This document shows, piece by piece, positions 9,360 to 49,041 of a stretch of DNA of 64,000 nucleotides (its first letter is position 1; every line of letters begins with the position of its first letter). A model generated the notes under the pieces. That model saw only the letters and a list, made by a program, of their open reading frames with translations, had not been told where the DNA came from and ran no database searches. Both the position numbers and the translations under genes were made by a program. The stretch spans positions 4,827-68,826 of the forward strand of contig DATKAO010000090.1 of NCBI GenBank assembly GCA_035498015.1, given 5' to 3'. This DNA comes from Myxococcota bacterium (GTDB taxonomy: Bacteria; Myxococcota_A; UBA9160; SZUA-336).

Positions 9360-9725
9360 ATGCGCTACGCCTGTCTGATCTATTTCGACCCGAAGGTCGT
9401 GTTCGACCAGAGCCCGGAGTCCAACGCCGTGCTGGCCGAGGCCGGCCCGTTCGACGAGCGGCTGAAGGGCACCGGCCAGCTCGTGATGGGGCTGCCGCTC
9501 CAGCTCCCGAAGGAGGCCATGACCGTGCGGGTGCGCGACGGCAAGATGTCCGCGACCGACGGCCCCTTCATCGAGACCAAGGAGGTGCTGGGCGGGCTCG
9601 TGCTGCTCGAGGCGCGCGACCTGAACGAGGCCGTGCGCATCGCGGCGCAGAACCCGTTCGCGCGGCTCGGCGCGATCGAGGTGCGGCCGCTCGTGGACTT
9701 CTCCAAGCCCCGGCCGCGGCTGTGA
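9360..9725 (+). CDS. YciI/DGPF family protein
   Basis: ATDGPFIETKEVLGG and IEVRP motifs; RBS GAGGAG. Confidence 0.9.
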   Translation: MRYACLIYFDPKVVFDQSPESNAVLAEAGPFDERLKGTGQLVMGLPLQLPKEAMTVRVRDGKMSATDGPFIETKEVLGGLVLLEARDLNEAVRIAAQNPFARLGAIEVRPLVDFSKPRPRL

Positions 9726-11068
9726 CTGCCGGCGCGGCCAGCGCGCGCGACGCGCTCGAGGCGGCCTACCGCCGCGAGTCACGGCGCGTGCTGGCCACGC
9801 TCGTGCGGCTGCTCGGCGACTTCGACGCCGCGGAGGAGGCGCTGCACGAGGCCTTCGCCGCCGCCGCCGAGTGCTGGCCGCGCGAGGGCGTGCCGGCCAA
9901 GCCCGGCGCGTGGCTGGTCTCCGCGGGCCGCTTCAAGACGATCGACCGCTGGCGCCGGCAGGCGCGGCTCGCCGGCGTGCTGCGCGAGCTCGCGCCGCAC
10001 GCGGAGCCGGTGACCGAGCCGGTGGAGCTCGCGCCGATCGCCGACGACGAGCTGCGGCTGATCTTCACCTGCGCTCACCCCGCGCTGCCGCCCGACGCGC
10101 GCATCGCGCTCACCTTGCGCGAAGTCGGCGGACTCACGACCGAGGAGATCGCGCGCGCCTATCTCGTGCCGGCGCCCACGATCGCGCAGCGCATCGTGCG
10201 CGCGAAGGCCAGGATCCGCGACGAGTCACTGCCCTACGAGGTGCCGGGTCCGGCGGATCTCCCGGCGCGGCTCGAGAGCGTGCTGGCCGTGATCTACCTG
10301 ATCTTCAACGAGGGCTACGCCGCGACGGGCGGAGACTCGCTGACACGCGCGGACCTGTGCGCCGAGGCGATCCGGCTGGGCGGGCTCCTGGTCGAGCTGC
10401 TCGACGATCCCGAAGCGCTGGGCCTGCTCGCGCTGATGCGCCTGCACGAGGCGCGGCGCGCCACGCGCGTCGACCCGTCGGGGGAGCTCTTGCTGCTCGA
10501 GCAGCAGGACCGCACGCGCTGGGACCGCAGCGCGATCGCCGAGGCGCGCGCGCTCGTCGACCGCGCGCTCGCCGCCCGGCGCGTCGGTCCCTACCTGCTG
10601 CAGGCGGCGATCGCCGCCGTGCACGCCGAGGCCCCGAGCGCGCGAGACACGGACTGGGCGGAGATCGTGGCGCTGTACGATGTGCTGCTGCGCGTCGCCC
10701 CGACGCCGGTGGTGGCGCTGAACCGCGCCGCGGCCATCGGCCTGCGCGACGGGCCCGCGGCCGGGCTCGCGGCGATCGACGCAGCGCTGGGGCAGGGCGG
10801 GCTCGAGCGCTACGGCTACGCGCACGCCGCGCGCGCGGAGATGCTGCGGCGGCTGGGCCGGACGGCCGAGGCGGGTGAGTCGTACCGGCGCGCGCTCGCG
10901 CTCACGGGTCAGCCCGCGGAGCAGCGCTTTCTCGCGCGGCGCCTGGCGGAGCTAGCGGCCGCTGGCGGCGCTGCTCTCCAGGTAGCCCGTGACGAGCCGG
11001 GTCGTCTCGGCGATGAAGCGCGCGGAGTCGAGCGGGCGGGCGCCCGCGACGAGCCGGTGCACGAGTGA
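9722..11068 (+). CDS. ECF RNA polymerase sigma factor with C-terminal TPR extension (ECF42-like)
   Basis: GDFDAAEEALHEAF, LIFTCAHPALPPDARIALTLR, YLIFNEGY, PYLLQAAIAAVH and DWAEIVALYD; downstream of a DGPF gene; GTG overlaps TGA. Confidence 0.9.
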   Translation: MTAGAASARDALEAAYRRESRRVLATLVRLLGDFDAAEEALHEAFAAAAECWPREGVPAKPGAWLVSAGRFKTIDRWRRQARLAGVLRELAPHAEPVTEPVELAPIADDELRLIFTCAHPALPPDARIALTLREVGGLTTEEIARAYLVPAPTIAQRIVRAKARIRDESLPYEVPGPADLPARLESVLAVIYLIFNEGYAATGGDSLTRADLCAEAIRLGGLLVELLDDPEALGLLALMRLHEARRATRVDPSGELLLLEQQDRTRWDRSAIAEARALVDRALAARRVGPYLLQAAIAAVHAEAPSARDTDWAEIVALYDVLLRVAPTPVVALNRAAAIGLRDGPAAGLAAIDAALGQGGLERYGYAHAARAEMLRRLGRTAEAGESYRRALALTGQPAEQRFLARRLAELAAAGGAALQVARDEPGRLGDEARGVERAGARDEPVHE

Positions 11069-14456: not shown

Positions 14457-15068
14457 ATGCGCAACTCCACTCTCGCTCTCGCCGCGCTCGCGCTTTCCGG
14501 CTGCGTGCAGACCGTAGCCGTGAACGGCGAGCTCCAGCCGAAGAACGCCATTCCCGACAAGTCGGTCGAAGCCGTGGGCGTGGTGTGCAGCCCGGCGCTG
14601 CTCTCGCACACGGCGCACGGCCGCTCGTGGCTCGTGGCCTACGAGCTCCCGCTGGGCCAGTCACTCTGCAGGGGGCTGGTCGAGGCCACGCGCGGCGCCT
14701 ACCGCAGCGCCGAGAGCTCGGTCGAGCCCTACAAGGGCCAGTACGCGCGCGTGATCAAGTACGACCTGGCGCGCAGCTCGCTCGACTTCGAGTCACAGCC
14801 CGACGGCTCCCGGCGCGTCGCCTACGGCGTCGAGGTGGTGGTCGAGAAATACAGCCGCGACCTGCGCCTGCAGAGCCGCAACGTCGTCGCGGGCAACGCG
14901 CTCGTCGACGGCAACTCCGGCACGCGCGAGGAGTGCGTGCAGCGCGCGGCCGCGGCCGCCCTGCAGGAGGTCGTGGACAAGACCACGGGCTTCCTGGTGG
15001 CCGGGCTCGGTGACGGGCCGCGCCAGCACAAGAAGGCGGCGAAGCAGACCAAGACCTCGAAGCGCTAG
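14457..15068 (+). CDS. Hypothetical lipoprotein
   Basis: MRNSTLALAALALSG-C lipobox. Confidence 0.65.
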   Translation: MRNSTLALAALALSGCVQTVAVNGELQPKNAIPDKSVEAVGVVCSPALLSHTAHGRSWLVAYELPLGQSLCRGLVEATRGAYRSAESSVEPYKGQYARVIKYDLARSSLDFESQPDGSRRVAYGVEVVVEKYSRDLRLQSRNVVAGNALVDGNSGTREECVQRAAAAALQEVVDKTTGFLVAGLGDGPRQHKKAAKQTKTSKR

Positions 15069-15685
15069 GGGTCGAACTTCATCCGGAACAGGATCCGGTC
15101 GCGCTCCGGGCGTTCCCAGACCCAGAAGTCCTCGCTGCGGTCCTTCACGCGCGCCAGCTCGTTCGTGAAGCCGAGTGACGCCCACGCGAGCGCGTCGGGA
15201 TAGTCTCTCGCGCCCGCGATCTCCATCAGCCAGCGCCGCGGGTGCTCCGGGTCGGGCTTCGCGCTCCAGCGCCCGAAGTTCAGGATGGCGGACGACAGCG
15301 TGGTGGTGCGCGCCAAGTCGCGCCCGAACGCCTCGTGCCGCTCCTTCGGGTCACTCTTGCGGCCGAAGCTCGCCGACTGCATGTACTCGAGCTGGCCGTA
15401 GAGACCACCGTCGAGCAGCCGGCGCGCAGAGCGAGCGCCGCGCTTCACGTGGTACTCGTTCTTGCCGCCGCCCTCGACGTCGCGCAGCAGCTCGGCCAGG
15501 CGCGCGTAGGCCCGCACGTCGTACCACTCGTGCGCGAGCACGGGCGTCCCGAGCAGCTCGAGGTCCGGCGGCTTGAGCCAGCGGGAGAGCTCGTCGCGCT
15601 TCAGCCGCCCCGAGGCGAGCAGCTTCTGCACGTCTTCGACCAGGCTGACGAAGACCGAGCCCTTGATCGACGGAACCGTCGGCAC
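15065..15685 (-). CDS. Uncharacterised protein, paralog of 35512..36129 (possible HNOB/V4R-like or DUF2378-like)
   Basis: PSIKGSVF, EWYD, LLRDVEGGG, GLY.QLEY and KPDPEHP shared with the second copy. Confidence 0.75.
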   Translation of the reverse strand: MPTVPSIKGSVFVSLVEDVQKLLASGRLKRDELSRWLKPPDLELLGTPVLAHEWYDVRAYARLAELLRDVEGGGKNEYHVKRGARSARRLLDGGLYGQLEYMQSASFGRKSDPKERHEAFGRDLARTTTLSSAILNFGRWSAKPDPEHPRRWLMEIAGARDYPDALAWASLGFTNELARVKDRSEDFWVWERPERDRILFRMKFDP

Positions 15686-15737: not shown

Positions 15738-16397
15738 TCACTTCGGCGAGTGACTCGCCAGGCGCAATACGGGCGGGTCGAGCAGGGCGCCGCTGCCCCA
15801 GATGGTCACCGCGGTGCGGACGGCCTCGCGGCGTGACACGCCCAGCCGTTCGGCGAAGCGCGGATCGGCGGCCTCGGTCACCAGGTGGTCGAGCATGAGG
15901 AGGGCGACGTTCGGGTTCAGCTCCGGGCGCAGGAACGGGCCGAGGATGGGCGCCGCCGCGCGCTTGCGCGCCTCGATCTCGGCGTTGAAGCGCGCCCAGC
16001 TCTCCGGGTGGTCGCGGTGCAGGTCCTGGAAGAAGGCGGGGGAGACGTGGGCCAGGCTGGCGGTCCAGGCGTCGGCCCAGGCGAGCAGCCGCTCGAGCGC
16101 GGCCTCGCAGTCGTCGACCCTCACCAGGTCGAGCGAGTCGATCGCCGCGAGCTCGAGCGCCCAGGCCTCGACCACGGCCGCGACCAGCTCGTCTTTCGAG
16201 GCGAAGTGTTTGTAGAGGGTCATCGCGCTCATCCGCAGCTCGGAAGCGAGTTCCCCCATCACCACCCCGCGGATGCCCGAGCGTTTGGCCTTGGCCGAGA
16301 AGGCCACCAGGATGCGCTCGCGCACGCGCGCGGCGTCGTCCGGATCGGGCGCGCGGGCGGGGCGTGCGGCGGACCTCTTGGGCGTGCGTCGGGCCAT
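15738..16397 (-). CDS. TetR/AcrR family transcriptional regulator
   Basis: VMGELASELRMSAMTLYKHFASKDELV HTH. Confidence 0.85.
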   Translation of the reverse strand: MARRTPKRSAARPARAPDPDDAARVRERILVAFSAKAKRSGIRGVVMGELASELRMSAMTLYKHFASKDELVAAVVEAWALELAAIDSLDLVRVDDCEAALERLLAWADAWTASLAHVSPAFFQDLHRDHPESWARFNAEIEARKRAAAPILGPFLRPELNPNVALLMLDHLVTEAADPRFAERLGVSRREAVRTAVTIWGSGALLDPPVLRLASHSPK

Positions 16398-16431: not shown

Positions 16432-16478
16432 GAGTAACAAAAAAACTCTTGCGTTACTCTGGATCTCATCCACACAAT
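16432..16478 (+). promoter_or_regulatory. Palindromic operator GAGTAAC-N14-GTTACTC overlapping a sigma70-like promoter (TTGCGT-N18-CACAAT)
   Basis: Perfect 7-bp arms at 16432-16438 and 16453-16459 in the AT-rich TetR/roxA intergenic region; -35-like 16449-16454, -10-like 16473-16478. Confidence 0.5.
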
Positions 16479-16524
16479 GCCTCCGGTCCGACCCCTCCGG
16501 GTCGGAAGAGGGAGGCCAATCATC

Positions 16525-18543
16525 GTGTCGAACGACTCGCTTCGTATTCTGACCGCGCTGGCGTTCGCTCTCGTGCTCGCGAGCCCCGCGCGCTCCGCGA
16601 CGGACCTCATCTACTCGAGCCATGGGGGCTCGGCCCAGTGGAGCTACTGCTACGGCAAGGCCGATTCTACGGCGCTGCCCGTCGACCCGCGCACGCTCGT
16701 GCAGCCGGGAGTCAGCGACAACCGCGCCGTCTCGTTCAACGCGTTCTGGAAGGACTGTCACGTCGATCCGGTCGCCGTGCAGGAGGAAGGTCACCCGACC
16801 ACCTGCGGGGAGCTGCGCGCGCGCTTCTACCGCGGCGAGGCGCTGCTGCACACCGGCGGCCCCGGCGTCGGCGCGCTGTTCACGGGCAACGATCCGACCA
16901 CGGTCGAATCGCTGTTCGGCAGCTCGACGATGACCGCGGCGCAATACAACGCGCTGTGGCTGTCGTGGGGCGGCTTTCTGCTGCGCCCCGACAACTTCGA
17001 TCAGCTCGTGGCCGAGCGCTACGGCTCGGGCTTCGGGCCCAACCCCAACCCCTACCCGAAGCCCGGCGAGGATCCGAACAAGAGCAACGGCGGCAGCGGC
17101 CGGCTGCCCGAGATGTTCACCCAGCTGCGCAACCCCGACGGGAAGTGGAGCGGTCGCATCGGAATCACCTGCCACGCTTGTCACAGCGGCGTGGTGAACG
17201 GCTCGGTCGCTTACGGCGGGGGCTCGAGCCTCGCCGACCTCCATCTGATCCTGCGCGACGGGCTGCCGCTCGGCTACCTGCCGGGGCTCGCGGCGCTGGC
17301 GAACCTGGACCGCACGCGCGGCACGAACAACGCCAGTGACATCAACCTCGCGTTCCTGTTCCCCGACCAGGGAACGCTCTCGCTCGACACCGTGCTGGGC
17401 GTGCTGTCTTCGGGCTCGACGGCCGACATCGACACGCCGGCCTGGTGGAACATGGGTCACCGCGCGGTGAAGTTCCAAGACGGCGTGTTTCCGATGGACG
17501 CGCCGCGCGTCGACATGGTGTTCTACACGCCGTTCTTCGGCCTGTTCGGGTCGCTCGGCGGCCCGATCTCCGAGGCGGGGCAGGACTGGATGCGCGGCCA
17601 TGGTCCCGATCTGAACACCTGGATCGAGACACTCAAGGCGCCGGCGTATCCCGGCACGATCAACACGGCGCTGGCCGAGCAGGGCGCGGTGCTCTTCCAC
17701 ACGCTCGACCTGTGGGCGCCCGCGCGCAACAACCCGGTGGCGCGACCGGCCACGGGCAACGGCTCCTGCGCCAGCTGTCACGGGGCCTACGCGCCGCGCT
17801 ACGTGAACGACCCGGCGTATCTCAAGACGCCCGCGCTCGAGGGCATGGCGTCGTACATCACCCCGCAGCGCATCATCCAGACCGATCCGGTGCGCATGCA
17901 GACCAACAACCAGGCCGTGCAGGTCGCGGGCGCGAGCAACTTCTTCGGCTATCCGACCACGTCGGGCACGCCGAACGACTGCGGCCCGCAGAACCGCGCC
18001 GACCTGCGCGGCAGCCGCGAGCTCGGCTATCTCGCGCAGCCGCTCTACGGCGTGTGGGCCTCGGCGCCGTATCTCCACAACGGCTCCGTGCCCAACGTCT
18101 GGGAGGTGCTGAAGCCCAGCGACCGCAAGCCCCTCTGGCGCCGGCGCTCGAAGTCACCGCGCATCGATCAGACCGGCCGCGTGATCATGGGCTACGACAC
18201 GGCCATGAGCGCGTACGACACGGCCAAGCTCGGCTGGAAGTACGACACCATCACCTGCCAGAAGCCAACGCTCTTGAATCCGTTCCCGTCGCAGTATCTC
18301 GCATGTGACCCGCAGGACGATCCGATCACCGCCTGGTACAACCAGATCCTGTTCTCGCTCTACAGCAACGTCGCCCTGGCCTGGAACGTGCTCTTCCCGC
18401 CGACGATCACCAACCAGCAGATCGAGGACCGCAAGATCTACAACGTGTACATGTACGGCCAGGGCAACAGCGGCCACACCTTCACGTCGGTGCTCACCGA
18501 CGCCGAACGGCAGGCGCTGATCGAGTATCTGAAGACCTTGTAG
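16525..18543 (+). CDS. roxA: Rubber oxygenase RoxA-like secreted diheme c-type cytochrome
   Basis: Signal peptide; CHACH (17170) and CASCH (17767) heme motifs 199 codons apart; GVWASAPYLHNGSVP (MauG/CcP motif); C-terminal GNSGHTFTSVLTDAERQALIEYLKTL; 672 aa; RBS GGAGG at 16511. Confidence 0.8.
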   Translation: MSNDSLRILTALAFALVLASPARSATDLIYSSHGGSAQWSYCYGKADSTALPVDPRTLVQPGVSDNRAVSFNAFWKDCHVDPVAVQEEGHPTTCGELRARFYRGEALLHTGGPGVGALFTGNDPTTVESLFGSSTMTAAQYNALWLSWGGFLLRPDNFDQLVAERYGSGFGPNPNPYPKPGEDPNKSNGGSGRLPEMFTQLRNPDGKWSGRIGITCHACHSGVVNGSVAYGGGSSLADLHLILRDGLPLGYLPGLAALANLDRTRGTNNASDINLAFLFPDQGTLSLDTVLGVLSSGSTADIDTPAWWNMGHRAVKFQDGVFPMDAPRVDMVFYTPFFGLFGSLGGPISEAGQDWMRGHGPDLNTWIETLKAPAYPGTINTALAEQGAVLFHTLDLWAPARNNPVARPATGNGSCASCHGAYAPRYVNDPAYLKTPALEGMASYITPQRIIQTDPVRMQTNNQAVQVAGASNFFGYPTTSGTPNDCGPQNRADLRGSRELGYLAQPLYGVWASAPYLHNGSVPNVWEVLKPSDRKPLWRRRSKSPRIDQTGRVIMGYDTAMSAYDTAKLGWKYDTITCQKPTLLNPFPSQYLACDPQDDPITAWYNQILFSLYSNVALAWNVLFPPTITNQQIEDRKIYNVYMYGQGNSGHTFTSVLTDAERQALIEYLKTL

Positions 18544-18682: not shown

Positions 18683-19489
18683 TCAGACACAGAACTCGTG
18701 GATCAGGGGCGCGACCCCCTCCGCGGCGGCGTTGTGAGTCTGTCCCGGGAGCTCGCGCAGCTTTGCGCCCGGGATCGTGTTCGCCACGGTCTCGACCGCG
18801 CGATGCATCCAGGCGGGACTCTTCCCGCCCACGCCGAGCAACGTGGGCACGCGCACCGAGCTCATCACCGAGACGAGCTCGCGCGGCAGCGGCCGGCCCG
18901 GACGGTCGCCGAGCTGCGCGAAGTCGTAGGGCAGGGTGTGCGCGACGGCCTTGAGCTTCGGCCACACGTTCGGGAGCAGCCGCATCGCGAAGATTCCGAA
19001 GGCCGGCACGCCGACCACCTTCATGAACAGCGCGACCGCGGCGCCTCGCTGGCCTCGTGCCAGCAGCGCGTCGATGCGCGAGCGATAGGAGTCGAGCAGC
19101 TCGACGTCGAAGCCGGCCTCCTCGAGCACGTACGGCGGCTCGAACATCACGAGCCTGCGCACGCCGGCGCCGGCGGCGGCCGCGCGCATGGCCAGCGCTG
19201 CGCCCGACGAAGCGCCGTACACGTGCGCGGAGCCGCCGAGCGCATCGATCAGCGCGGCCAGGTCCTCGACCTCGCGGCCCACGGAGTAGGGCGCGGTGTC
19301 TCTGCTGTCGCCGCGCCCGCGGCGGTCGTAGTGCAGCACCGTGAAGTGCGGGGCGAGCAGCGCGGCGAGCTTCGCCATCGGGCCGAAGCTGCGCCGGCAC
19401 AGCGCGCCGTCGCAGAGGACGAGCGGGGGGCCGTTGCCCTGGCGCTCGAAGGCGATCCGGGTTCCGTCCGCGGAGATCACGGTGTCCAT
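18683..19489 (-). CDS. Alpha/beta hydrolase
   Basis: HYDRRGRGDS, YGASSG nucleophile elbow and LPGQTH. Confidence 0.9.
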   Translation of the reverse strand: MDTVISADGTRIAFERQGNGPPLVLCDGALCRRSFGPMAKLAALLAPHFTVLHYDRRGRGDSRDTAPYSVGREVEDLAALIDALGGSAHVYGASSGAALAMRAAAAGAGVRRLVMFEPPYVLEEAGFDVELLDSYRSRIDALLARGQRGAAVALFMKVVGVPAFGIFAMRLLPNVWPKLKAVAHTLPYDFAQLGDRPGRPLPRELVSVMSSVRVPTLLGVGGKSPAWMHRAVETVANTIPGAKLRELPGQTHNAAAEGVAPLIHEFCV

Positions 19490-19544: not shown

Positions 19545-20750
19545 CTAGCTGTTGCCCGAGATCAGCACGCCCTGGGATTCGAGCGCCGAGATCCGCCGCG
19601 CATCGAGCCCGAGTCTCTCGCGCAGGACCTGCGCGTTGTGCTCGCCCAGCAGCGGCGCGCGCAGATCCGGGAGCCGCGGCATCGCGCCGAACTTGAAGGG
19701 GAAGCCCGGGATCGTGACCGGGCCCGCCACCGGATCGGGCACGCGCCGCACCATCTCGCGCGCGGTGAAGTACGGGTGAGTCACCGTCTCCTTCACGGTC
19801 AGGACCGGCGCCGCCGCGACGCGGTGCTTCTCGAACACCGCCAGCGCGGCATCCGTCGTGCCCTGGGCCGCGAGCCAGCGCTCGATGATCGCGGTGAGCT
19901 CGAGCTTGTTCGCGCCGCGCGCGGCGCCGGTCGCGAAACGCGGGTCGTTCACGAGCTCGGGCCGCTCGATCGCGCGGCAGAAGCTCTCCCACTGGCGGTC
20001 GAGCACGAGCAACACGATCCAGCCCTGCGGCGTCTCGTACACACCCATCGGCCCCGCCATTCCGTGCTGCCCGCCGTGGCGCGTGGGCTCGAGTGAGCCG
20101 TCGCTGTTGGCGTAGAACTGCACGTTGCCCTCGTGACAGTGGTAGAGCGCGTCGACCATCGACACGTCGATGTATTGCCCCTGGCCCGTGCGCTCGCGGT
20201 GGAACAGCGCGTAGCCGATCGCGCCGAACGCGTGCACGCCGCTCTGCACGTCGGCGATCGCGAGCCCGACCCACATGGGCGGGCCGGCCGGGTCGCCGGT
20301 CATGGACATGAGCCCCGAGAACGCCTGTGCGATCAGGTCGAAGCCCACCTTGTGCGCGAGCGGACCGGTGCGGCCGAAGGCCGAGATCGAGGCCATGACC
20401 AGCCTCGGGTTGCGTTTGCAGAGTGACTCGTACGAGATGCCGCGCTTCTCGAGCACACCGGGGCCGTAGTTCTCGACCACCACGTCGGCGCCCGCCGCGA
20501 GCTCGACCAGGAGCTCCGCGCCCTCGGGCTTCGAGAAGTCGACACACAGGCTCTTCTTGCCCCGGTTCTGCTGCACGAAGTACAGGCTGCGCTCGCCCTT
20601 GCGCAGCGGCAGCAGGCGCGACGGATCGCCGCCGGGCGCCTGCTCGACCTTGACCACGTCGGCGCCCATCTCGGCCATGAGCCGTGTGACGGTCGGCCCC
20701 GCGAGATACTGCGTGAAGTCCACGACCCGGATCCCGGAAAGCATCGACAT
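19545..20750 (-). CDS. CaiB/BaiF family III CoA transferase
   Basis: GIRVVDFTQYLAGP, NRGKKS, DVVVENYGPG and APLLGEHN. Confidence 0.95.
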   Translation of the reverse strand: MSMLSGIRVVDFTQYLAGPTVTRLMAEMGADVVKVEQAPGGDPSRLLPLRKGERSLYFVQQNRGKKSLCVDFSKPEGAELLVELAAGADVVVENYGPGVLEKRGISYESLCKRNPRLVMASISAFGRTGPLAHKVGFDLIAQAFSGLMSMTGDPAGPPMWVGLAIADVQSGVHAFGAIGYALFHRERTGQGQYIDVSMVDALYHCHEGNVQFYANSDGSLEPTRHGGQHGMAGPMGVYETPQGWIVLLVLDRQWESFCRAIERPELVNDPRFATGAARGANKLELTAIIERWLAAQGTTDAALAVFEKHRVAAAPVLTVKETVTHPYFTAREMVRRVPDPVAGPVTIPGFPFKFGAMPRLPDLRAPLLGEHNAQVLRERLGLDARRISALESQGVLISGNS

Positions 20751-20840
20751 CGGCGTCCTCCCTGGCCACGCTCCGGCACGCACGCGCGCCCGGCGGTAGC
20801 ATGCACCGACCGGCATCGAAAAATCGAAGGAGCCTCCCCA

Positions 20841-21275
20841 ATGGCAGAGCCCGCGCTCCCCCCCGCGTTGCCTGGCTGGATCGCCGACCACTTGAAGCGC
20901 TACCAGGCCACGAACGGCGCCGACGGCCACATCTGGAACGGCGTGCCCACTCTGTTGCTCACCACGAAGGGCCGCAAGAGCGGCGAAGCGCGCACGCTGC
21001 CGCTGATCTACGGCCGCGACGGCGAGCGCTACGTGATCGTCGCCTCGCGCGGCGGCGCGCCGGATCACCCGGACTGGTACAAGAATCTGGTCGCGACTCC
21101 GACGGTCGGTCTGCAGGTCGCGGCCGACAGGTTCCAGGCGCGCGCCTCGACCGCCAAGGGCGCCGACCGCAAGCGCCTGTGGCAGGTCATGACCAAGCTC
21201 TGGCCCGCCTACGACGAGTACCAGACCAAGACCCAGCGCGAGATCCCGGTCGTGGTGCTGGAGCGCGCGAAGTGA
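20841..21275 (+). CDS. Nitroreductase family deazaflavin(F420)-dependent oxidoreductase (Ddn-like)
   Basis: LLLTTKGRKSGEARTLPL, VASRGGAPDHPDWYKNL and YQTKTQREIPVVVL. Confidence 0.9.
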   Translation: MAEPALPPALPGWIADHLKRYQATNGADGHIWNGVPTLLLTTKGRKSGEARTLPLIYGRDGERYVIVASRGGAPDHPDWYKNLVATPTVGLQVAADRFQARASTAKGADRKRLWQVMTKLWPAYDEYQTKTQREIPVVVLERAK

Positions 21276-37562: not shown

Positions 37563-39378
37563 CTCGCGGCTGAACGCCTGGCTGCACCGGCTCGAGCTTG
37601 CGCTCGTGCCGGCGCACCTGCGCGGCGATCCCGCTGCGCTGCGCTCGGCCGGCCTGGTCGCAGGCTTCTCACTCGTGCCCGCGGCGTTCGTACCGTTTCT
37701 CGCGCTCATGGAGTGGGTCGCGTTTCCGCGCGACGTGGCGCTGCACGTCGTGCCGCTCGTGCTGGCGGCGGGGCCGGTGTGCGCGCTCGTGCCGCTGGTG
37801 CGGCGCTGGAGCGGCAGGACGGTGATCGCGGGCAACGCCATGCTGGCCTACGCCTTCGGGCTGTTCGCGATCGTGACCTACTACGCGGGCGGCGCGATCT
37901 CGCCCCCGAGTTTCTGGAACGTGTTGATCCCCATGTCTGCGATCGCGCTCGCAGGCCGGCGCTGGGCCGCGTTCTGGGCGGTGCTCGTGCTCGTCGAGGC
38001 GGTGACCATCGTGTGGCTCGAGAGACATGGGCTGCACTTCGAGAACCGGGTGCTGCCGGAGTGGCGCGCCCTGTACTGGTTCGCCAGCATCGGCACGCTC
38101 TCCACGCTGATCATGTTCGCGGGACTGGTCTACGAGCGCACCAAGGACGTGGCGCTGCACACGCTCGAGTCGGCCAATGCCGAGCTCGAGCGCGCGCGCG
38201 ACGAGGCCGAGAGCGCCAGCAGCGCGAAGAGTGACTTCCTGGCCATCCTGACTCACGAGATCCGCACGCCGATGACCGCGATCCTGGGCTTCGCCGACGT
38301 GCTGCGCGACGAGTGGAGCGAGCGCGGCTTCGCTGGGCGTCACGTGGAGGCGCTGGCCACGATCCAGCGCAGCGGGCGCGAGCTCCTGGAGACGATCAAC
38401 GACCTGCTCGACCTGTCGAAGATCGAGGCGGGCAAGCTCGAGCTCGAGCGCATCGCGTTCTCGCCCGCGGAGCTGATCGCCGACGTGCTGGAGCCGCTGC
38501 GCCCGCGCGCGCAGGCGCTGGGGCTCGAGCTCGAGCTCGAGCTGCGCCCGCACGTGCCCGGCGCGGTGCAGAGTGACCCGGCGCGACTGCGCCAGATCGC
38601 GCTGCACCTGCTCGAGAACGCGCTCGCCTTCACGGCGCGCGGGGGGATCCACGTTTCGCTCGGCGTCTCGAGCGAGGAGCGCCGTGAGTATCTCGACCTG
38701 CGCGTGCGCGACACGGGCTTCGGCATCCCGCCCGAGAAGCTCGCCTCGCTGTTCCAGCCCGGGCTGCGCCGGCGCCCGCAGGCGGACGCCGGCGAGCGCA
38801 TGGGCCTGGGGCTCGCGATGTGCAAGCGACTCACCGAGCTCTTGGGCGGCCGGATCGAGGTCGAGAGCGAGCTGGGTCACGGCAGCACCTTCCGCGTGCT
38901 CGTGCCGATCGCGGCCGCCGACACGCCGGCCTGGTCCCCGCGCAAGCGCGGGCCCGAGACACCGGCGTTCTCGCGCGCCTCGCTGCGCGCGCACGTGCTG
39001 GTGGTCGACGACGGACCGGACAACCTGCGCCTGATCTCGCACGTCCTGGGGCGCGCCGGCGCCGACGTGGTGACTGCCTCCGAGGGCAGGGCGGCGCTGG
39101 CGTGCGTGGCCGAAGCGGAGCGCACGGGCCGGCCCTTCGACGTGGTGCTGATGGACATGCAGATGCCCGAGCTGGACGGCTACGCCGCCACCGCCGAGCT
39201 GCGGCGGCGCGGCTTCGCGCGGCCGATCGTGGCGCTGACCGCCCACGCCGTGCCGGGCACGCGCGAGAGCTGCCTGGCGGCAGGCTGCGACGACTTCGCG
39301 ACCAAGCCCGTCGACCGGCGCGAGCTGATCGAGCGGATTCGGCGGCTGTGCCCGGATATACTGCGGCCCGAGGGGTGA
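37555..39378 (+). CDS. Hybrid membrane sensor histidine kinase/response regulator
   Basis: Multi-TM N-terminus; [14 protein letters not shown] and GLGL; receiver domain VVDD...[11 protein letters not shown]...VALTAHA...KP. Confidence 0.9.
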
Positions 39379-40709
39379 GTGCTTTGAGACCGTTCCAGGA
39401 AATCCCGAAGCTCGGCTTCTTCAAGGGCCTGCGCGTCGCGCTGGCGAGCGGCGGTGGCCGGGTCGACATGCTGTCCGGGCTGCGCGAGCAGTACGAGTCA
39501 TTCGGGCCGGTCGTGGTGCAGCTCTCCGGGCCGTTCAAGCTCGTGAACCTGTTCGGCCCCGACGCCAACCGCCTGGTGCTGATGGACCGCGACCAGATCT
39601 TCAGCGCCAAGCGGCCGTGGGACCAGATCATGGGCCGGATCTTCACCAACGGGCTGCTCCTGCGCGACGGCGCCGACCACAAGCACCACCGCAAGGTCAT
39701 GCACGAGGCGTTCACTCGTCCCGCGCTGCGCGAGTACGTGGAACGCATGCACCCGATCGTGCAGCGCGGGCTCGAGTCACTCGACACGCGCGAGCCGCTG
39801 CTCGCGTTCCGCGCCTACAAGCAGCTGACGCTCGAGATCGCGGCCGCGATCTTCGTCGGCATGGACCTGGGCCCCACCACGCGCCCGATGAACCGCGCCT
39901 TCGAGGACATGGTCGCGGCCTCGATGTCGCGCGTGCGCCTGCCCTGGCTGGGGCGCGAGTTCGCGCGCGGTCTGGCGGGCCGCAAGTATCTGCTCGAGCT
40001 CCTGGGCGGCATGCTCGAGAAGAAGCACGGCGACGGCGGCCCCGACATGTTCAGCCGTCTATGCCGCGCGCGCACGCCCGAGGGCGAGGCGCTCGAGGAC
40101 TCCGAGGTGCTCGACCACATGATCTTCCTCATGATGGCCGCGCACGACACGACCACGAGCACGCTGTCGTCGCTCACGTACGAGCTGGCGACGCACCCCG
40201 AGTGGCAGGAGCGCGTGCGCGAGGAGTCACGCGCCCTGGGCACGGGTGAGCCGGGCCTCGAAGACCTGGGCAGGCTCGAGGCGCTGGGCTGGGCCATGGA
40301 CGAGACGCTGCGCCGCTACCCGCCGCTGCCCGTGATTCCGCGCGTCAGCACCCAGAGCTTCGAGTTCGCCGGCTTCGAGATTCCGGCCGGCTGCATGGTG
40401 GTCGTGTCTCCGATCCATACCCACCACATGGTGGAGTGGTGGAACGAGCCGTTCTCCTGGGACCCCGCGCGCTTCACGCCCGGCCGCGCCGAGCAGGAGC
40501 GCCATACTCACTCCTGGGTCCCGTTCGGGGGCGGGCCGCACATGTGTCTGGGCATGCGCTTCGCCGAGGCACAGGTGCGGCTGGTCATGCACCACCTGGT
40601 CACCCGCTTCCGCTTCAGCGTGCCCGACGGCTACCGCATGCCGGTTCAGCAGGCGCCGATCTCGAAGCCGCGCGACGGTCTGCCGGTCCGCTTCACGCCG
40701 CTCGCTTGA
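39375..40709 (+). CDS. Cytochrome P450
   Basis: AAHDTT (I-helix), ETLR (ExxR) and PFGGGPHMCLG (heme Cys). Confidence 0.95.
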   Translation: MSALRPFQEIPKLGFFKGLRVALASGGGRVDMLSGLREQYESFGPVVVQLSGPFKLVNLFGPDANRLVLMDRDQIFSAKRPWDQIMGRIFTNGLLLRDGADHKHHRKVMHEAFTRPALREYVERMHPIVQRGLESLDTREPLLAFRAYKQLTLEIAAAIFVGMDLGPTTRPMNRAFEDMVAASMSRVRLPWLGREFARGLAGRKYLLELLGGMLEKKHGDGGPDMFSRLCRARTPEGEALEDSEVLDHMIFLMMAAHDTTTSTLSSLTYELATHPEWQERVREESRALGTGEPGLEDLGRLEALGWAMDETLRRYPPLPVIPRVSTQSFEFAGFEIPAGCMVVVSPIHTHHMVEWWNEPFSWDPARFTPGRAEQERHTHSWVPFGGGPHMCLGMRFAEAQVRLVMHHLVTRFRFSVPDGYRMPVQQAPISKPRDGLPVRFTPLA

Positions 40710-40741
40710 CAGCCCGGCGCGCCCGGCCGGAGCATGGGCGC

Positions 40742-41667
<926 letters not shown>

Positions 41668-41671
<4 letters not shown>

Positions 41672-42495
41672 GCGGGCGCGCGATCGACACCGGGACCGAG
41701 ACGCTCCAGGCGCGGGTCGAGGACGGCGTGGCCTACCTCGTGATGAACCGGCCCGAGCGCCGCAACGCGCTCTCGGACGAGATGTTCCGCGGCATGGCAG
41801 CGGCGCTGCGCGAGGCCGAGACCGCGAGCGACGTGCGCTGTCTCGTGCTGACCGGTGCAGGCGGCGCGTTCTGCTCGGGCGGCGACGTGAAGGGCATGGC
41901 CGCAGGTGCGAATCGCGGGCCGGGAGTCACGCTCGACGAGCGCATCCATCGCCAGCGGCTCTCGCAGCGCGAGACCGCGGGGCGGCTCTACCGCATGCCC
42001 AAGCCGGTGATCGCCTCGCTGCCGGGGCCGGCCGCGGGCGCGGGTCTCTCGCTGGCGCTGGCCTGCGACCTCCGGATCGCCGCCGAGAGCGCGCTGCTCA
42101 CGACTGCGTTCGCCAAGGTCGGCTTCAGCGGCGACTACGGCGGCAGCTTCTTCCTGACCCACCTGGTCGGCTCGGCCCGGGCGCGCGAGCTCTACTACCT
42201 CTCCGATCGCATCGACGCCAAGCACGCCGAGAGACTGGGCCTGGTGAATCGCGTCGTGCCCGACGCCGCGCTCGCCGACGAGACGCGCGCGCTCGCCCAG
42301 CGCCTGGCCTCGGGCGCCACCGTGGCCTTCCGCTACATGAAGGAGAACTTGAACCGCGCGGCGGAAGGCGCGAGCGCCGAGGAGTGTCTCGACCTCGAAG
42401 CCACCCACCACGTGCACACGGGACTCACCGAAGACCACCGCGAGGCCGCACAGGCGTTCGTCGAGAAACGGACGCCCACCTTCAAGGGGCGGTAG
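41668..42495 (+). CDS. Enoyl-CoA hydratase/isomerase (PaaG-like subfamily)
   Basis: MNRPERRNAL, FCSGGDV, GAGLSLALACD and FAKVGFSGDYGGSFFL. Confidence 0.9.
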
Positions 42496-44686: not shown

Positions 44687-47600
44687 ATGTGGATCGTCCG
44701 TCTCGCGCTCCGCAGGCCCTACACGTTCGTGGTCATGGCGATGCTGATCGGGGTGCTCGGCACGCTGTCGATCGCCACCATGCCGACGGACATCTTCCCG
44801 AGCATCAACGTGCCGGTGGTGTCGTCCGTCTGGTTCTACGGCGGGCTGGCGCCCGACGAGATGCAGAACCGCATCACCACGATCGTCGAGCGCGCCACGA
44901 CCACCACGGTCAACGACATCCAGCACATCGAGTCAGTGACCCTGCGCGGCGTGACGGTGATCAAGGTCTTCCTGCAGCCCGGCGCGAGCCCCGAGGCGGG
45001 CGTGGCGCAGATCAACGCCATCTCGAACACGCTGATCCGGCCGCTCCCGCCGGGAATCACTCCGCCGTTGATCCTGCAGTACAACGCCGCCAGCGTGCCG
45101 GTGCTGTTGCTCAGCCTGTCGAGTGACACGCTCTCGGACCAGGAGATCAACGACCTCGGCTCGAACTTCATCCGCACCCAGCTCGTCACGGTGAACGGGG
45201 CGTCGATCCCGCCCAGCTACGGCGGCAAGTCGCGGCAGATCATGGCCGACCTGGACACGGACGCGCTGTACGCGCGCGGTCTCTCGCCGCAGGACGTCTC
45301 GAACGCGCTCGGCCAGCAGAACGTGATCCTGCCCGCTGGCACGGCCAAGATGGGGGTGCGCGAGTACGACGTGGCGCTGAACGGCAGCCCCCAGGTCCTG
45401 GCCGACCTGGACGAGCTGCCGGTGAAGGCCGTGAACGGCGCGGTCGTGAAGATGCGCGACGTGGCGCACGTGCACGACGGCTTCTCGCCGCAGACCAACA
45501 TGATCCGCCGCGACGGCAAGCACGCCGTGATGCTGTCCGTGCAGAAGAGCGGCCGCGCGTCGACGCTGGCGGTGGTGCAGGGCGTGAAGGACATGATGCC
45601 GCGGGTCATGGCCGGCATGCCGCCGGCGCTGAAGGTCGACTTGTTGTTCGACCAGTCACTCTTCGTGCGCGCGGCGATCGGCGATGTGCTGCGCGAGGGC
45701 GCGATCGCCGCCGGACTCACGGCGCTCATGATCCTCCTGTTCCTGGGCAGCCCGCGCAGCACGGTGATCGTGGCGACCTCGATCCCGCTGTCGGTGCTGA
45801 CTTCGATCGTGGTGCTCAAGGCCTTCAACCAGACCTTGAACGTCATGACCCTGGGCGGCATGGCGCTCGCGGTGGGCATCCTGGTCGACGACGCCACGGT
45901 CGAGATCGAGAACATCCACCGCAACCTCGCCGAGCACAAACCCATGCGGCAGGCGATCCTCGACGGCGCGCAGCAGATCGCCACCGCGGCCTTCGTCTCG
46001 ACGCTCTCGATCTGCATCGTGTTCGTGCCGGTGTTCCTGCTGGGCGGCGTGGTCGGGTCACTGTTCTCGCCACTGGCGCTGGCGGTGGTGGCAGCCATGA
46101 TGGCCTCGTACCTGCTGTCGCGCACGCTGATCCCCACCATGGTCCTGTATCTCCTGCCCGGCGAGCTCGCGCGCGAGGCGGCGCACGACCCGGGGGGACG
46201 GGTGCACCAGCTCACCGCTCGCGCCCACGAGCGCGTGAACCACGCCTTCCAGACGCTCGGTCACACCTACGAGCGCGCGCTGACCCACGCGCTCACCGAG
46301 CGACGCACCGTGGCGCTGAGCTTCGGCGCGTTCGCGCTCGCCTCGCTCGTGCTCGTGCCGTTCGTGGGGCGCGACTTCTTCCCGACGGTCGACGCCGGCT
46401 CGCTGCGCCTGCACCTGCGCGGGCCGACCGGCACGCGCCTCGAAGAGACCGAGCGCTACTTCCAGCGCGTCGAGGACCGGATCCGCCAGCTCATCCCGCC
46501 CGACGAGCTCGGCGTGGTGCTCGACAACATCGGCGTGCCCAACGGCATCAACCTCGCGACCACCGACAGCGCGACCGTGTCCGCCGCCGAGGGCGAGATC
46601 CTCGTGTCACTCAAGCCGGGCCACGCGCCGACCGCGAGCTACTTGAAGAAGCTGCGCGCGGTGCTGCCCTCCGAGTTTCCGGAGATCACCTTCTTCGCGC
46701 AGCCCGCGGACATGGTCGGGCAGATCCTGAACTTCGGCCTGCCCGCGCCGATCGACGTGCAGGTCAGCGGCCCCAACGCGGAGCAGGCGCACAACTACCA
46801 GTTCGCCCAGGAGATCGCCGAGCAGGTGCGCAAGATCCCGGGCGCGGTCGACGTGCACGTGCACCAGGTGGTCGACGGCCCGCGCCTGGCCTTCGACGTC
46901 GACCGCTCGCTCGCGGCCGAGAGCGGGCTCAGCGTGCGCGACGTGGCCAACAGCCTGTTGATCTCGCTGACCGGCACGGGCAGCACCAGCACCAACTTCT
47001 GGCTCAACCCCAAGAACGGCGTGAGCTATCCGGTGGTGATCCAGAGCCCGCAGCACCGCATGGCGAGCATCGGTGCGCTGCAGGCCACGCCGGTCACTTC
47101 GAGCGGTGAGTCGACGCCGCAGATCCTCTCGGGCGTGGCCACGCTGTCTCGCACCACCACGCCGGTCGCGCTCAATCACTACAACGTGCAGCCCGTGTAC
47201 GACGTGTTCGCCAACGTGCAGGGCTCGGACCTGGGCTCGGTGGCCGACGCGGTGACTCGCGTGGTCGACGAGTTCCGCAGCAAGATCCCCAAGGCCAGCA
47301 TCATCACCATGCGCGGCCAGGTGCAGAGCATGAACGAGGCTTTCGCCGGGCTCGGCTTCGGGATCCTGTTCGCGATCGTGCTGGTCTACTTCCTGATGGT
47401 CGTGAACTTCCAGTCGTGGATCGATCCGGCGATCATCTTGATGGCGCTGCCGGGCGTGGTCGCGGGCATCCTGTGGCTGCTGTTCGCGACCGGCACGACG
47501 CTCAGCGTTCCGTCTCTCATGGGGGCGATCATGGCGATCGGCGTCGCCACCTCGAACAGCATCCTGCTCATCACCTTCGCGAACCAGGAGCGCCACCGCG

Positions 47601-47854
47601 GTCTCGACGCGCGCGCGGCGGCGCTGTCCGCGGGACGCACGCGTCTGCGGCCGGTGCTGATGACCGCGCTGGCCATGGTGATCGGCATGCTGCCCATGTC
47701 GCTCGGTCTGGGCGAGGGCGGTGAGCAGAACGCGCCGCTCGGCCGCGCCGTGATCGGCGGGCTCACGCTCGCCACGCTCTACACGCTGTTCTTCGTGCCC
47801 ATTGCCTACAGTCTGCTGCGCCAGAAGCCGCCCAAGCCCCTGGAGGATGCGTGA
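44687..47854 (+). CDS. RND efflux permease (AcrB/CusA family)
   Basis: 1055 aa; LRRPYTF start, GILVDDATVEIENI and RLRPVLMTALA. Confidence 0.95.
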   Translation: MWIVRLALRRPYTFVVMAMLIGVLGTLSIATMPTDIFPSINVPVVSSVWFYGGLAPDEMQNRITTIVERATTTTVNDIQHIESVTLRGVTVIKVFLQPGASPEAGVAQINAISNTLIRPLPPGITPPLILQYNAASVPVLLLSLSSDTLSDQEINDLGSNFIRTQLVTVNGASIPPSYGGKSRQIMADLDTDALYARGLSPQDVSNALGQQNVILPAGTAKMGVREYDVALNGSPQVLADLDELPVKAVNGAVVKMRDVAHVHDGFSPQTNMIRRDGKHAVMLSVQKSGRASTLAVVQGVKDMMPRVMAGMPPALKVDLLFDQSLFVRAAIGDVLREGAIAAGLTALMILLFLGSPRSTVIVATSIPLSVLTSIVVLKAFNQTLNVMTLGGMALAVGILVDDATVEIENIHRNLAEHKPMRQAILDGAQQIATAAFVSTLSICIVFVPVFLLGGVVGSLFSPLALAVVAAMMASYLLSRTLIPTMVLYLLPGELAREAAHDPGGRVHQLTARAHERVNHAFQTLGHTYERALTHALTERRTVALSFGAFALASLVLVPFVGRDFFPTVDAGSLRLHLRGPTGTRLEETERYFQRVEDRIRQLIPPDELGVVLDNIGVPNGINLATTDSATVSAAEGEILVSLKPGHAPTASYLKKLRAVLPSEFPEITFFAQPADMVGQILNFGLPAPIDVQVSGPNAEQAHNYQFAQEIAEQVRKIPGAVDVHVHQVVDGPRLAFDVDRSLAAESGLSVRDVANSLLISLTGTGSTSTNFWLNPKNGVSYPVVIQSPQHRMASIGALQATPVTSSGESTPQILSGVATLSRTTTPVALNHYNVQPVYDVFANVQGSDLGSVADAVTRVVDEFRSKIPKASIITMRGQVQSMNEAFAGLGFGILFAIVLVYFLMVVNFQSWIDPAIILMALPGVVAGILWLLFATGTTLSVPSLMGAIMAIGVATSNSILLITFANQERHRGLDARAAALSAGRTRLRPVLMTALAMVIGMLPMSLGLGEGGEQNAPLGRAVIGGLTLATLYTLFFVPIAYSLLRQKPPKPLEDA

Positions 47855-49041
47855 GCGACTCCCTGACCCCGTCGAGTGACTCTCTGTTCCGGCGCACGGC
47901 GACGCGCGCCCGAGCGAACCCCGCGCTGACCGCGGGCGTGCTCTTGCTCGCGCTCCTGTTGGTGGCCGGGATCGTGCCGCGCGTGCGCGCGCGCATGGAG
48001 CGCGCCAACGACCTGGCGGCGGCCGCAGACGCGCTGCCGCGCGTGGCGGTGACCGCGCCGCGCCAGGCGCCGGTCTCACAGCTCTCGCTGCCCGGCTCCG
48101 CGCAGCCCTTCCAGCAGGCCACCCTCTACGCGCGCTTGAACGGCTATCTCGACCAGCGCCTGGTCGACATCGGCGACACGGTGAAGGCGGGTCAGCTCCT
48201 GGCGGTGATCAGCGCGCCCGAGCTCGACCAGCAGCTCGCGCAGGCCGAGGCCGCGCTGGTGCGCGCGCGCGCCGACCTGGAGCTGGCGCGCAGCACCTAC
48301 CGCCGCTTCGAGGAGGCGGACAAGGACGGCGCGATCGCCAAAGAGGACCTCGACCAGCGCCGCACCGCGGTGAGCACCGCCGAGGCGACCGTGAAGGCGC
48401 AGAGCGCCACCGTGGCCGGGCTGGCCGAGCAGCAGCGCTTCGAGCGAGTCACTGCACCGTTCGACGGCGTGGTCACCGAGCGCAACGTCGACGTGGGGGC
48501 GTTGATCACGGCGGGCAGCGCGTCTTCCACCACGCCGCTGTTCACGCTCGCACAGAGCTCGACGCTGCGCGTGTACATCGCCGTGCCGCAGGCGTTCGTC
48601 GACGAGCTCAAGGTCGGGCAGCCGGTGAAGATCCGCTCGCGCACGCTCGCCGGGCGCGAGTTCACGGGCACGGTGGCGCGCACCGCGGGCGCGCTCGATC
48701 CGGTCACGCGCACCATGCAGACCGAGATCGACATCGCCAACGACGACAACGCGCTCAAGGCCGGCATGTATCTCCAGGTCGAGCTGGTCGGCGAGCGCGT
48801 CGGGCCGCGCTGGCGCGTGCCCGCGAGCGCCGTGCTGTTCGATGGCTCCGGCACGCGCCTGGCGCTGGTCGACGGCGAGAACACGCTGCGGTTCCGGCCG
48901 GTGATCCTGGGCCGCGATTTCGGCGACGAGATCGAGATCGGGTCGGGCATCGCGGGCGACGAGCGGGTGGTCACCACGCCCTCGGCGGCGTACTTCGAAG
49001 GTCAGAAGGTCGAAGCAGTACAGGCGCCGCCCAAGTCATGA
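47851..49041 (+). CDS. RND periplasmic adaptor (membrane fusion protein)
   Basis: GYLDQRLVDIGDTVKAGQLLA, VTAPFDGVVTER and GALDPVTRT. Confidence 0.95.
   Translation: MSDSLTPSSDSLFRRTATRARANPALTAGVLLLALLLVAGIVPRVRARMERANDLAAAADALPRVAVTAPRQAPVSQLSLPGSAQPFQQATLYARLNGYLDQRLVDIGDTVKAGQLLAVISAPELDQQLAQAEAALVRARADLELARSTYRRFEEADKDGAIAKEDLDQRRTAVSTAEATVKAQSATVAGLAEQQRFERVTAPFDGVVTERNVDVGALITAGSASSTTPLFTLAQSSTLRVYIAVPQAFVDELKVGQPVKIRSRTLAGREFTGTVARTAGALDPVTRTMQTEIDIANDDNALKAGMYLQVELVGERVGPRWRVPASAVLFDGSGTRLALVDGENTLRFRPVILGRDFGDEIEIGSGIAGDERVVTTPSAAYFEGQKVEAVQAPPKS

Follow-up and report, generated by a model that had tools for sequence, protein, structure and literature searches.

The window analysed here, a 64,000-nucleotide stretch of contig DATKAO010000090.1 from a Myxococcota bacterium (assembly GCA_035498015.1), carries on its forward strand, at 16525..18543, a gene that on sequence grounds is an orthologue of roxB, that is, of the RoxB rather than the RoxA subtype of rubber oxygenases. 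That this open reading frame (ORF) encodes a RoxB-type rubber oxygenase is the best explanation and is highly probable. The gene itself is one more RoxB orthologue, and current NCBI models and standard annotation can already name it. The new points, both from comparative evidence, are a candidate repressor-operator module, made up of a divergently oriented TetR-family gene and an operator-like palindrome between the two genes, and the frequency of genomes that have RoxB only. We tentatively propose that the two genes and the palindrome form a horizontally transferred cassette, which would provide bacteria lacking RoxA with an inducible polyisoprene oxygenase.

Assignment to the RoxB subtype

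The roxB gene starts with GTG at 16525, ends with a stop codon at 18541-18543 and, according to the ORF listing and its translation, encodes a precursor of 672 amino acids (aa). The frame 16477-18543(+) has a G+C fraction of 0.92 at third codon positions and 0.50 at second positions, in a window of about 70% G+C, and this is therefore a real gene and not a chance ORF. Its longest version begins with ATG at 16477 and would have 688 aa, but GTG 16525 is, as read from the sequence, the better start, because the Shine-Dalgarno sequence GGGAGG (16510..16515, + strand) lies 9 nt upstream of it, because the nearest homologues have 672 aa, and because ATG 16477 overlaps the putative -10 box of the promoter described below. 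GGAGG-type boxes are found at equal spacing in related loci.

Residues 1-24 (16525..16596, + strand) form a predicted Sec-type signal peptide, which contains one Arg and the hydrophobic stretch ILTALAFALVLA, followed by the predicted cleavage site ARS/ATD, and lacks a lipobox Cys. The predicted mature protein has 648 aa, a mass of 70.5 kDa without haems and an isoelectric point (pI) of 5.9, compared with 70.3 and 70.8 kDa and pI 6.3 and 6.7 for the two characterised RoxBs (RoxB35Y, 70.3 kDa and pI 6.3). The N-terminus predicted after cleavage, ATDLIYSS, lines up with ATDLIKSS in RoxB35Y; cleavage of the RoxB35Y signal has been published as TDA/A34TD (PMC10837239 Table 1), and the residue numbers in the literature match the RoxB35Y sequence only after an offset of 33 residues, which yields the mature end ATDLIKSS. 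A Sec signal without a lipoprotein Cys and a mass of about 70 kDa for the extracellular enzyme are both features of RoxB, and secretion is predicted accordingly from the sequence. In addition, the genome encodes three Cytochrom_C_asm proteins, with a CcmF-sized and CcmC-sized pair together on one contig, as well as two secretins, and maturation and export of RoxB are therefore feasible.

With the NCBIfam RoxB equivalog model NF050034, the product scores 1074.8 bits (cut-off 900, model positions 1-652 covered), whereas the second-best model, RoxC NF051462, reaches 595 bits against a cut-off of 900, and the RoxA model NF050033 reaches 464 bits against a cut-off of 1000. The only Pfam match is the RoxA-like cytochrome-c motif region (PF21419, RoxA-like_Cyt-c) at residues 501-539, with an E-value of 5e-20. 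In full-length alignment, the product is 76% identical to both RoxB35Y and RoxB-NS21, and local BLASTP against 5.8 billion proteins gives 77% to RoxB of Steroidobacter cummioxidans 35Y, 78% to RoxB (LatA1) of Piscinibacter/Rhizobacter gummiphilus and 80-83% to proteins from metagenome-assembled genomes (MAGs) of uncultured Myxococcota. The closest sequence match among solved structures is RoxA (PDB 4b2n; E 4e-117, approximately 37% identity), and no RoxB structure was found in the PDB by sequence search or fold search. The initial annotation had called the product a RoxA-like rubber oxygenase: its placement in the RoxA/RoxB superfamily as a secreted di-haem protein stands, but the RoxA subtype does not, given 1074.8 bits for RoxB and 464 for RoxA. 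It had also stated that no roxB lies in the window, which is incorrect in that the gene in question is itself roxB, and its mention of myxobacterial homologues is borne out by the relatives in Myxococcota MAGs.

Phylogeny leads to the same assignment. A maximum-likelihood tree of 92 Rox proteins, with NCBIfam labels for the RoxA and RoxC references, places the product in a 10-member clade, with a support of 100 in the Shimodaira–Hasegawa-like approximate likelihood ratio test (SH-aLRT), alongside the two characterised RoxBs, four sequences from Steroidobacteraceae and three from Myxococcota MAGs. The RoxA clade and the RoxC clade are separate from it, with a support of 100 each. The alignment to RoxA and RoxB that the initial annotation had proposed alongside a phylogeny recovers RoxB signature residues, including the active-site Phe (Phe333) and the three haem His. 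Within the RoxB clade, the gamma- and beta-proteobacterial RoxBs of 35Y and NS21 and those of Steroidobacteraceae branch inside a paraphyletic group made up of sequences from MAGs of uncultured Myxococcota (clade support 100, inner nodes 83-87). This nested branching of the characterised Steroidobacter and Rhizobacter RoxBs fits a transfer from a Myxococcota-like donor, and it agrees with the published proposal of a delta-proteobacterial origin for the rox genes.

The haem-binding residues of RoxB are all found in the product. The motif of haem 1, at the active site, is CHACH at residues 216-220 (17170..17184, + strand), with Cys216, Cys219 and the proximal ligand His220, and this is the RoxB form. 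The motif of haem 2, CASCH at residues 415-419 (17767..17781, + strand), with Cys415, Cys418 and His419, follows 199 codons after CHACH. The second axial ligand of haem 2 is His651 (18475..18477, + strand), within NSGH at residues 648-651; it corresponds to His627 in RoxB35Y and His641 in RoxA, and is His in all 119 homologues aligned. The MauG-type motif PYLHNGSVP, with His518 (18067..18093, + strand), is identical to that of RoxB-NS21, and GVWASAPYLHNGSVP spans residues 509-523. The distal residue Phe333 (17521..17523, + strand) is equivalent to Phe317 of RoxA, where this Phe is essential (PMC10837239), and to Phe309 of RoxB35Y, and it too is conserved in 119/119 homologues. CHACH, CASCH and His220, His419 and His651 are invariant across the 119 RoxB homologues. 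What the initial annotation had noticed, namely a secreted protein of 672 aa with two CxxCH motifs 199 codons apart, the motif GVWASAPYLHNGSVP and NSGH, is thus all present in the gene.

The three subtypes have published signatures (PMC6311187 Table 1; PMC10837239 Table 1). RoxA has CSACH, Trp at the W302 position, Phe at the F317 position and the MauG motif PYFH; RoxB has CHACH, Val294, Phe309, PY[ML]H, the ligands H196, H395 and H627, and cleavage at TDA/ATD; RoxC has CFQCH, Phe at W302, Ala at F317, a lipobox and often a third haem. In our own alignment, these discriminators reappear, with CS[AG]CH in the RoxA rows, CHACH in the RoxB rows and CFQCH in the RoxC rows. The product has CHACH and CASCH with the three axial His, PY[LM]HNGSVP, and Phe at the F317/F309 position, all as in RoxB. 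It departs from the signature where RoxA has Trp302 and RoxB35Y has Val294: both characterised RoxBs have Val here, whereas the product has Gln318 (17476..17478, + strand), a rare variant. This site separates RoxB from RoxA (Trp) and RoxC (Phe), yet it is not strictly conserved inside RoxB, as the column contains Val 99, Ala 10, Ile 6 and Gln 4 times in the 119 homologues (the Gln count includes the query twice). Gln318 is, on this alignment, a minority state at a variable site, that is, a variant and not an exclusion from RoxB. Other query-specific changes at near-invariant columns of the same alignment are just two, N66 and S187.

The product exhibits considerable similarities to RoxA, but there are also clear differences. 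An AlphaFold model (mean predicted local distance difference test score, pLDDT, 83.5; predicted template-modelling score, pTM, 0.86) has RoxA 4b2n as its sole significant Foldseek match in the PDB (E 5e-47, template-modelling (TM) scores 0.76/0.78). The two proteins have in common the superfamily, this fold, two c-type haems, the MauG motif, the distal Phe, a Sec signal and, as predicted for the product, polyisoprene dioxygenase chemistry. RoxA differs in that it is only about 37% identical, has CSACH, Trp302 and PYFH, binds O2 stably as isolated and cleaves at chain ends to the C15 product 12-oxo-4,8-dimethyltrideca-4,8-diene-1-al (ODTD). The likeness to RoxB35Y (UniProt A0A1S6Q8F9) and to RoxB/LatA1 of NS21 extends to length, the mature N-terminus ATDLI, CHACH and CASCH, the three haem His and Phe at F309; apart from Gln in place of Val294, the differences lie in the divergent TetR gene and palindrome described below and in the host, which is here an uncultured Myxococcota-like organism known from a 4.5-Mb MAG without a RoxA partner. 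RoxCs, for example those of Fontimonas thermophila and Oceanococcus atlanticus (NF051462), belong to the same superfamily but are lipoproteins, often with a third haem, and have CFQCH and Ala at F317; two purified RoxCs were without rubber oxygenase activity (PMC10837239).

The divergent TetR gene and the operator-like palindrome

Upstream of roxB and divergent from it lies a gene for a TetR-family regulator of 219 aa (15738..16397, - strand), recognised by Pfam TetR_N (PF00440, E 2.9e-8, 33.8 bits, cut-off 24). Orthologues of this regulator (52-84% identity) divergently adjoin roxB in 10 of 75 genome loci, and the hosts of the pair include uncultured Myxococcota, a Bdellovibrionota MAG, Pseudomonadales and others. 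A search seeded with the TetR protein returned 317 homologues at E <= 1e-20, from which five on long metagenome contigs were chosen for listing of their neighbours. In all five, the TetR gene divergently adjoins a gene for a PF21419 protein, which has 672-678 aa in four of them and is split in the fifth. In this last case, a 174-kb ENA contig (L094, 1892-3908), the roxB homologue appears as a 465-aa ORF overlapped by one of 223 aa, and may represent a frameshifted pseudogene or an assembly error.

The TetR-roxB pair is thus present in 15 other loci, and in the five metagenome contigs with listed neighbours the outer flanks are mutually unrelated; the divergent TetR gene is the only gene that travels with roxB. 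Eight genomes with a roxB locus outside such a pair were tested, among them all six that have both RoxA and RoxB, and none of the eight contains a TetR orthologue anywhere; neither the TetR gene nor the palindrome was found in the Steroidobacteraceae loci and genomes tested. Conversely, RoxA is absent from every tested genome that bears the pair, subject to the incompleteness of MAGs.

The 127-bp intergenic region contains an operator-like palindrome, AGTAAC-N14-GTTACT with an A-rich spacer (16433..16458), which occurs once in the 4.52-Mb genome. DNA is available for 14 further TetR-roxB loci, and all 14 have the palindrome in the same position, with one mismatch in one of them (L003); when the pattern is loosened, only about ten additional matches appear across 1.4 Mb of loci. 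Some distant loci have tandem operator-like sites, in two or three copies, upstream of roxB (L013 9006-9111, L059 9648-9754 and L044 ~9640-9750). The last of these loci has a further perfect palindrome at 15086-15111, about 3 kb downstream of roxB, possibly at a second regulated gene.

A putative roxB promoter can be read from the sequence at 16449..16478 (+ strand), with a -35-like box TTGCGT (16449-16454), a -10-like box CACAAT (16473-16478) and an 18-nt spacer, and the right arm of the palindrome overlaps the -35-like TTGCGT. Related loci have TTGCRT/TTGACA and NANAAT boxes at equal spacing, which is consistent with the assignment of these boxes. Between the putative promoter and the Shine-Dalgarno sequence, at approximately 16483-16506, lies a GC-rich hairpin, CCGACCC-CTCC-GGGTCGG, and similar hairpins occur in some related loci. 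A conserved hairpin of the 5' untranslated region was considered and dropped, as RNAalifold gave no consensus structure for the nine loci compared.

Overall, these comparisons suggest that the TetR protein is a candidate dedicated repressor of roxB with its own operator. Such control would resemble the regulation of lcp by LcpR: for LcpRVH2 and LcpRBA3(2) of actinomycetes, too, a TetR regulator lies beside the rubber oxygenase gene and the operator is palindromic and upstream (PMC8235351), although binding in the present case is a prediction. The LcpR systems differ in that the oxygenase, Lcp, contains a b-type haem and is exported by the twin-arginine translocation (Tat) pathway, in that the operator sequence is different, and in that the TetR protein described here has no detectable specific relationship to these regulators. 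A literature search found no regulator of Rox, which is an absence of evidence only. If the proposal is correct, no regulator of a Gram-negative rubber oxygenase would have been described before this TetR protein, and the candidate repressor and operator might be usable as a switch that responds to oligo-isoprenoids.

RoxB without RoxA: proposed function and alternatives

The host assembly is a 95% complete MAG of 4.52 Mb in 257 contigs, and all statements on absence in this genome are to be read within that coverage. A six-frame search of the genome with the RoxB model found a single Rox-family gene, and RoxA, RoxC and Lcp were not found in the genome. The initial annotation had noted that the window is without lcp, and this extends to the whole genome. 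An Lcp was taken to be a Tat-exported haem-b protein of about 400 aa with a sequence related to LcpK30. The one PF09995 gene (MpaB/Lcp superfamily; contig C90, 3542-4201), on the same contig as roxB, was rejected as an Lcp: its product is about 296 aa long from the first plausible start, with no signal peptide seen on reading the sequence and no PDB sequence match at E <= 1, and is a generic MpaB/DUF2236-type, oxygenase-like protein. This gene lies just upstream of the window (L002, 805-2274) and overlaps an opposite-strand frame with a TetR-like C-terminal part.

The occurrence of roxB without a RoxA gene is not confined to this genome. A RoxA above the family cut-off is missing in 17 of 23 roxB-bearing genomes (the present one included), and it is found in 6 of the 22 others, which belong to Steroidobacter, Peristeroidobacter, Povalibacter, Minicystis, Archangium and Nannocystis; many of the RoxA-negative genomes are MAGs, so that any single absence is open to doubt. 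RoxA is missing from the host genome and from the four MAGs whose RoxB is closest, and within the genus roxB occurs in 3 of 12 genomes. RoxB without RoxA therefore appears to be common in uncultured lineages. This frequency raises the question of whether such organisms use rubber at all, as the literature stresses the synergy of RoxA and RoxB, and growth of R. gummiphilus on rubber needs both of its rubber oxygenases (PMC6460296).

The defining chemistry of RoxB is O2-dependent endo-cleavage to products of C20 and longer, at an enzyme whose haem 1 is ferric and five-coordinate, with a Soret band at 404 nm and a band at about 618 nm, and with no effect of CO expected (reviewed in PMC6311187 and PMC10837239). 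RoxB35Y has a specific activity of about 6 U/mg on polyisoprene latex, and active Rox proteins have been reported from a single expression host, S. cummioxidans 35Y with roxA and roxB deleted (PMC6311187). The catalysis and product pattern of the enzyme described here would follow this scheme, given its 76-78% identity to two purified RoxBs. By orthology, the precursor would be exported by the Sec system, CHACH and CASCH would each receive a c-type haem in the periplasm, and the 70-kDa holoenzyme would then leave the cell. Its N-terminal haem, five-coordinate with His220 as the proximal and Phe333 as the distal residue, would use O2 to cut poly(cis-1,4-isoprene) at cis double bonds within the chain and release oligo-isoprenoids that carry aldehyde and keto ends and form a ladder from C20 through C25 and C30 upwards, while the His419/His651 haem and the MauG-type motif would represent the cytochrome-c-peroxidase-like core. 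Without RoxA, RoxB would act alone, as Lcp does in actinomycetes, and feed no exo-acting partner; the organism would have to import these longer products directly, in the manner of Lcp-only actinomycetes, or else gain something different from the reaction. The TetR protein would bind the unique palindrome over the -35 box and repress roxB, and probably its own gene, until a ligand releases it, and this ligand is plausibly an oligo-isoprenoid cleavage product.

Several alternatives must be weighed against a RoxB-type rubber oxygenase. A RoxA-type, exo-cleaving enzyme that releases ODTD would account for the best solved structure being that of RoxA and for the similar size, haem-motif spacing and MauG motif, but the RoxA model remains at less than half of its cut-off, identity to RoxA is only about 37%, the active-site motif is CHACH instead of CSxCH, Trp is missing at the W302 position, and branches with a support of 100 part the product from the RoxA clade, so that this reading is very improbable. 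Equally improbable is a generic di-haem protein of the CcP/MauG type, in full bacterial di-haem cytochrome c peroxidase (CcP), or a RoxC-like paralogue without activity, that plays no part in polymer cleavage. CcP and MauG do have the core fold and the MauG motif in common with the product, and the NCBIfam CytoC_perox subfamily model scores 108 bits; this is, however, under its cut-off of 150, MauG and CcP structures match the AlphaFold model only at E > 0.1 and TM < 0.4, and the RoxC features, namely CFQCH, Ala at the F317 position, the lipobox Cys and the third haem, are all missing.

A more serious alternative, if still an unlikely one, is an enzyme of the RoxB clade whose natural substrate is not rubber but another polyunsaturated isoprenoid or lipid (polyprenols, squalene, carotenoids or unsaturated fatty acids might be considered), with rubber cleavage as a side activity at most. 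The lack of RoxA, RoxC and Lcp in the host, the 17 of 23 roxB genomes without RoxA and the need of R. gummiphilus for both enzymes (PMC6460296) would all be in line with this. The two inactive RoxC relatives (PMC10837239) indicate that membership of the superfamily is no guarantee of rubber cleavage, related di-haem enzymes of Pseudomonas are reported to oxygenate oleate (PMC4496055), and Gln318 is rare at a site that discriminates subtypes. However, 76-78% identity and a fully supported clade link the product to two proven polyisoprene cleavers, the signature residues are otherwise all kept, including the Phe that RoxCs lack, and Lcp-only actinomycetes grow on rubber with a single endo-type oxygenase (PMC6311187). 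Furthermore, no neighbouring gene suggests another substrate, and the idea of a new substrate is without positive support.

A RoxB-type rubber oxygenase thus remains the preferred reading of the gene. As to the locus, the TetR gene, the palindrome and roxB may form a self-contained, horizontally transferred two-gene cassette through which soil and aquatic bacteria without RoxA (uncultured Myxococcota, Bdellovibrionota, Pseudomonadales) acquire a polyisoprene endo-oxygenase that is inducible and works on its own, with the TetR protein sensing an oligo-isoprenoid product and with the Myxococcota clade near the donor lineage of the proteobacterial RoxBs; we regard this combined proposal as a serious possibility, with slightly more doubt than confidence. 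Several observations weigh against one or the other of these readings. Gln318 replaces the Val of both characterised RoxBs in the region that holds Trp302 in RoxA. The ligand domain of the TetR protein matches no characterised regulator, and solved TetR structures are matched only through the N-terminal helix-turn-helix region. The promoter boxes are weak, and a stricter consensus scan made no call on the putative roxB promoter. In addition, a RoxA gene may have been missed in a MAG of 95% completeness and 257 contigs, and an organism with RoxB only may not utilise rubber, considering the need for two oxygenases in R. gummiphilus.

Neighbouring genes

Beyond the TetR gene, no other neighbour of roxB recurs outside the genus. 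An alpha/beta hydrolase gene (18683-19489) lies downstream of roxB and is absent even from a same-genus locus. It is followed by a gene for a CoA_transf_3 protein (19545-20798, - strand), which matches formyl-CoA and succinate-hydroxymethylglutarate CoA-transferases at 1e-71 and the alpha-methylacyl-CoA racemase Mcr at 1e-22. Its assignment as the alpha-methylacyl-CoA racemase of a rubber pathway was rejected on the basis of these values and because it belongs to a backbone common to congeners without roxB. This gene and the adjoining deazaflavin-reductase-like and GH43-like genes are conserved in same-genus genomes without roxB; the former of the two (20841-21275, + strand) belongs to the deazaflavin (F420H2)-dependent oxidoreductase family (PF04075, TIGR00026) and stands beside the CoA-transferase gene in the congeners too.

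The initial annotation had placed roxB in a context of lipid and isoprenoid catabolism, with CoA-transferase, hydratase, thiolase and P450 genes, and this context is not supported. The CoA-transferase is a backbone gene, as described above; genes for a P450, an aldo-keto reductase and an enoyl-CoA hydratase do stand in a row at 39375-42495 (+ strand), more than 20 kb from roxB, and nothing ties them to it; and no thiolase was found among the ten window ORFs scanned.

On the other side, a gene for a 206-aa protein (15065-15685, - strand), which matches no Pfam or NCBIfam model, adjoins the TetR gene. Its 66%-identical orthologue in a same-genus genome (G011) lies on the opposite side of roxB (L093, 9134-9748), and the gene was found near roxB only in the genus. 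Farther away, at 44687-50426 (+ strand), the window contains a complete efflux operon of the resistance-nodulation-division (RND) type, which encodes an AcrB-type pump of 1055 aa, a HlyD-type adaptor and an outer-membrane factor.

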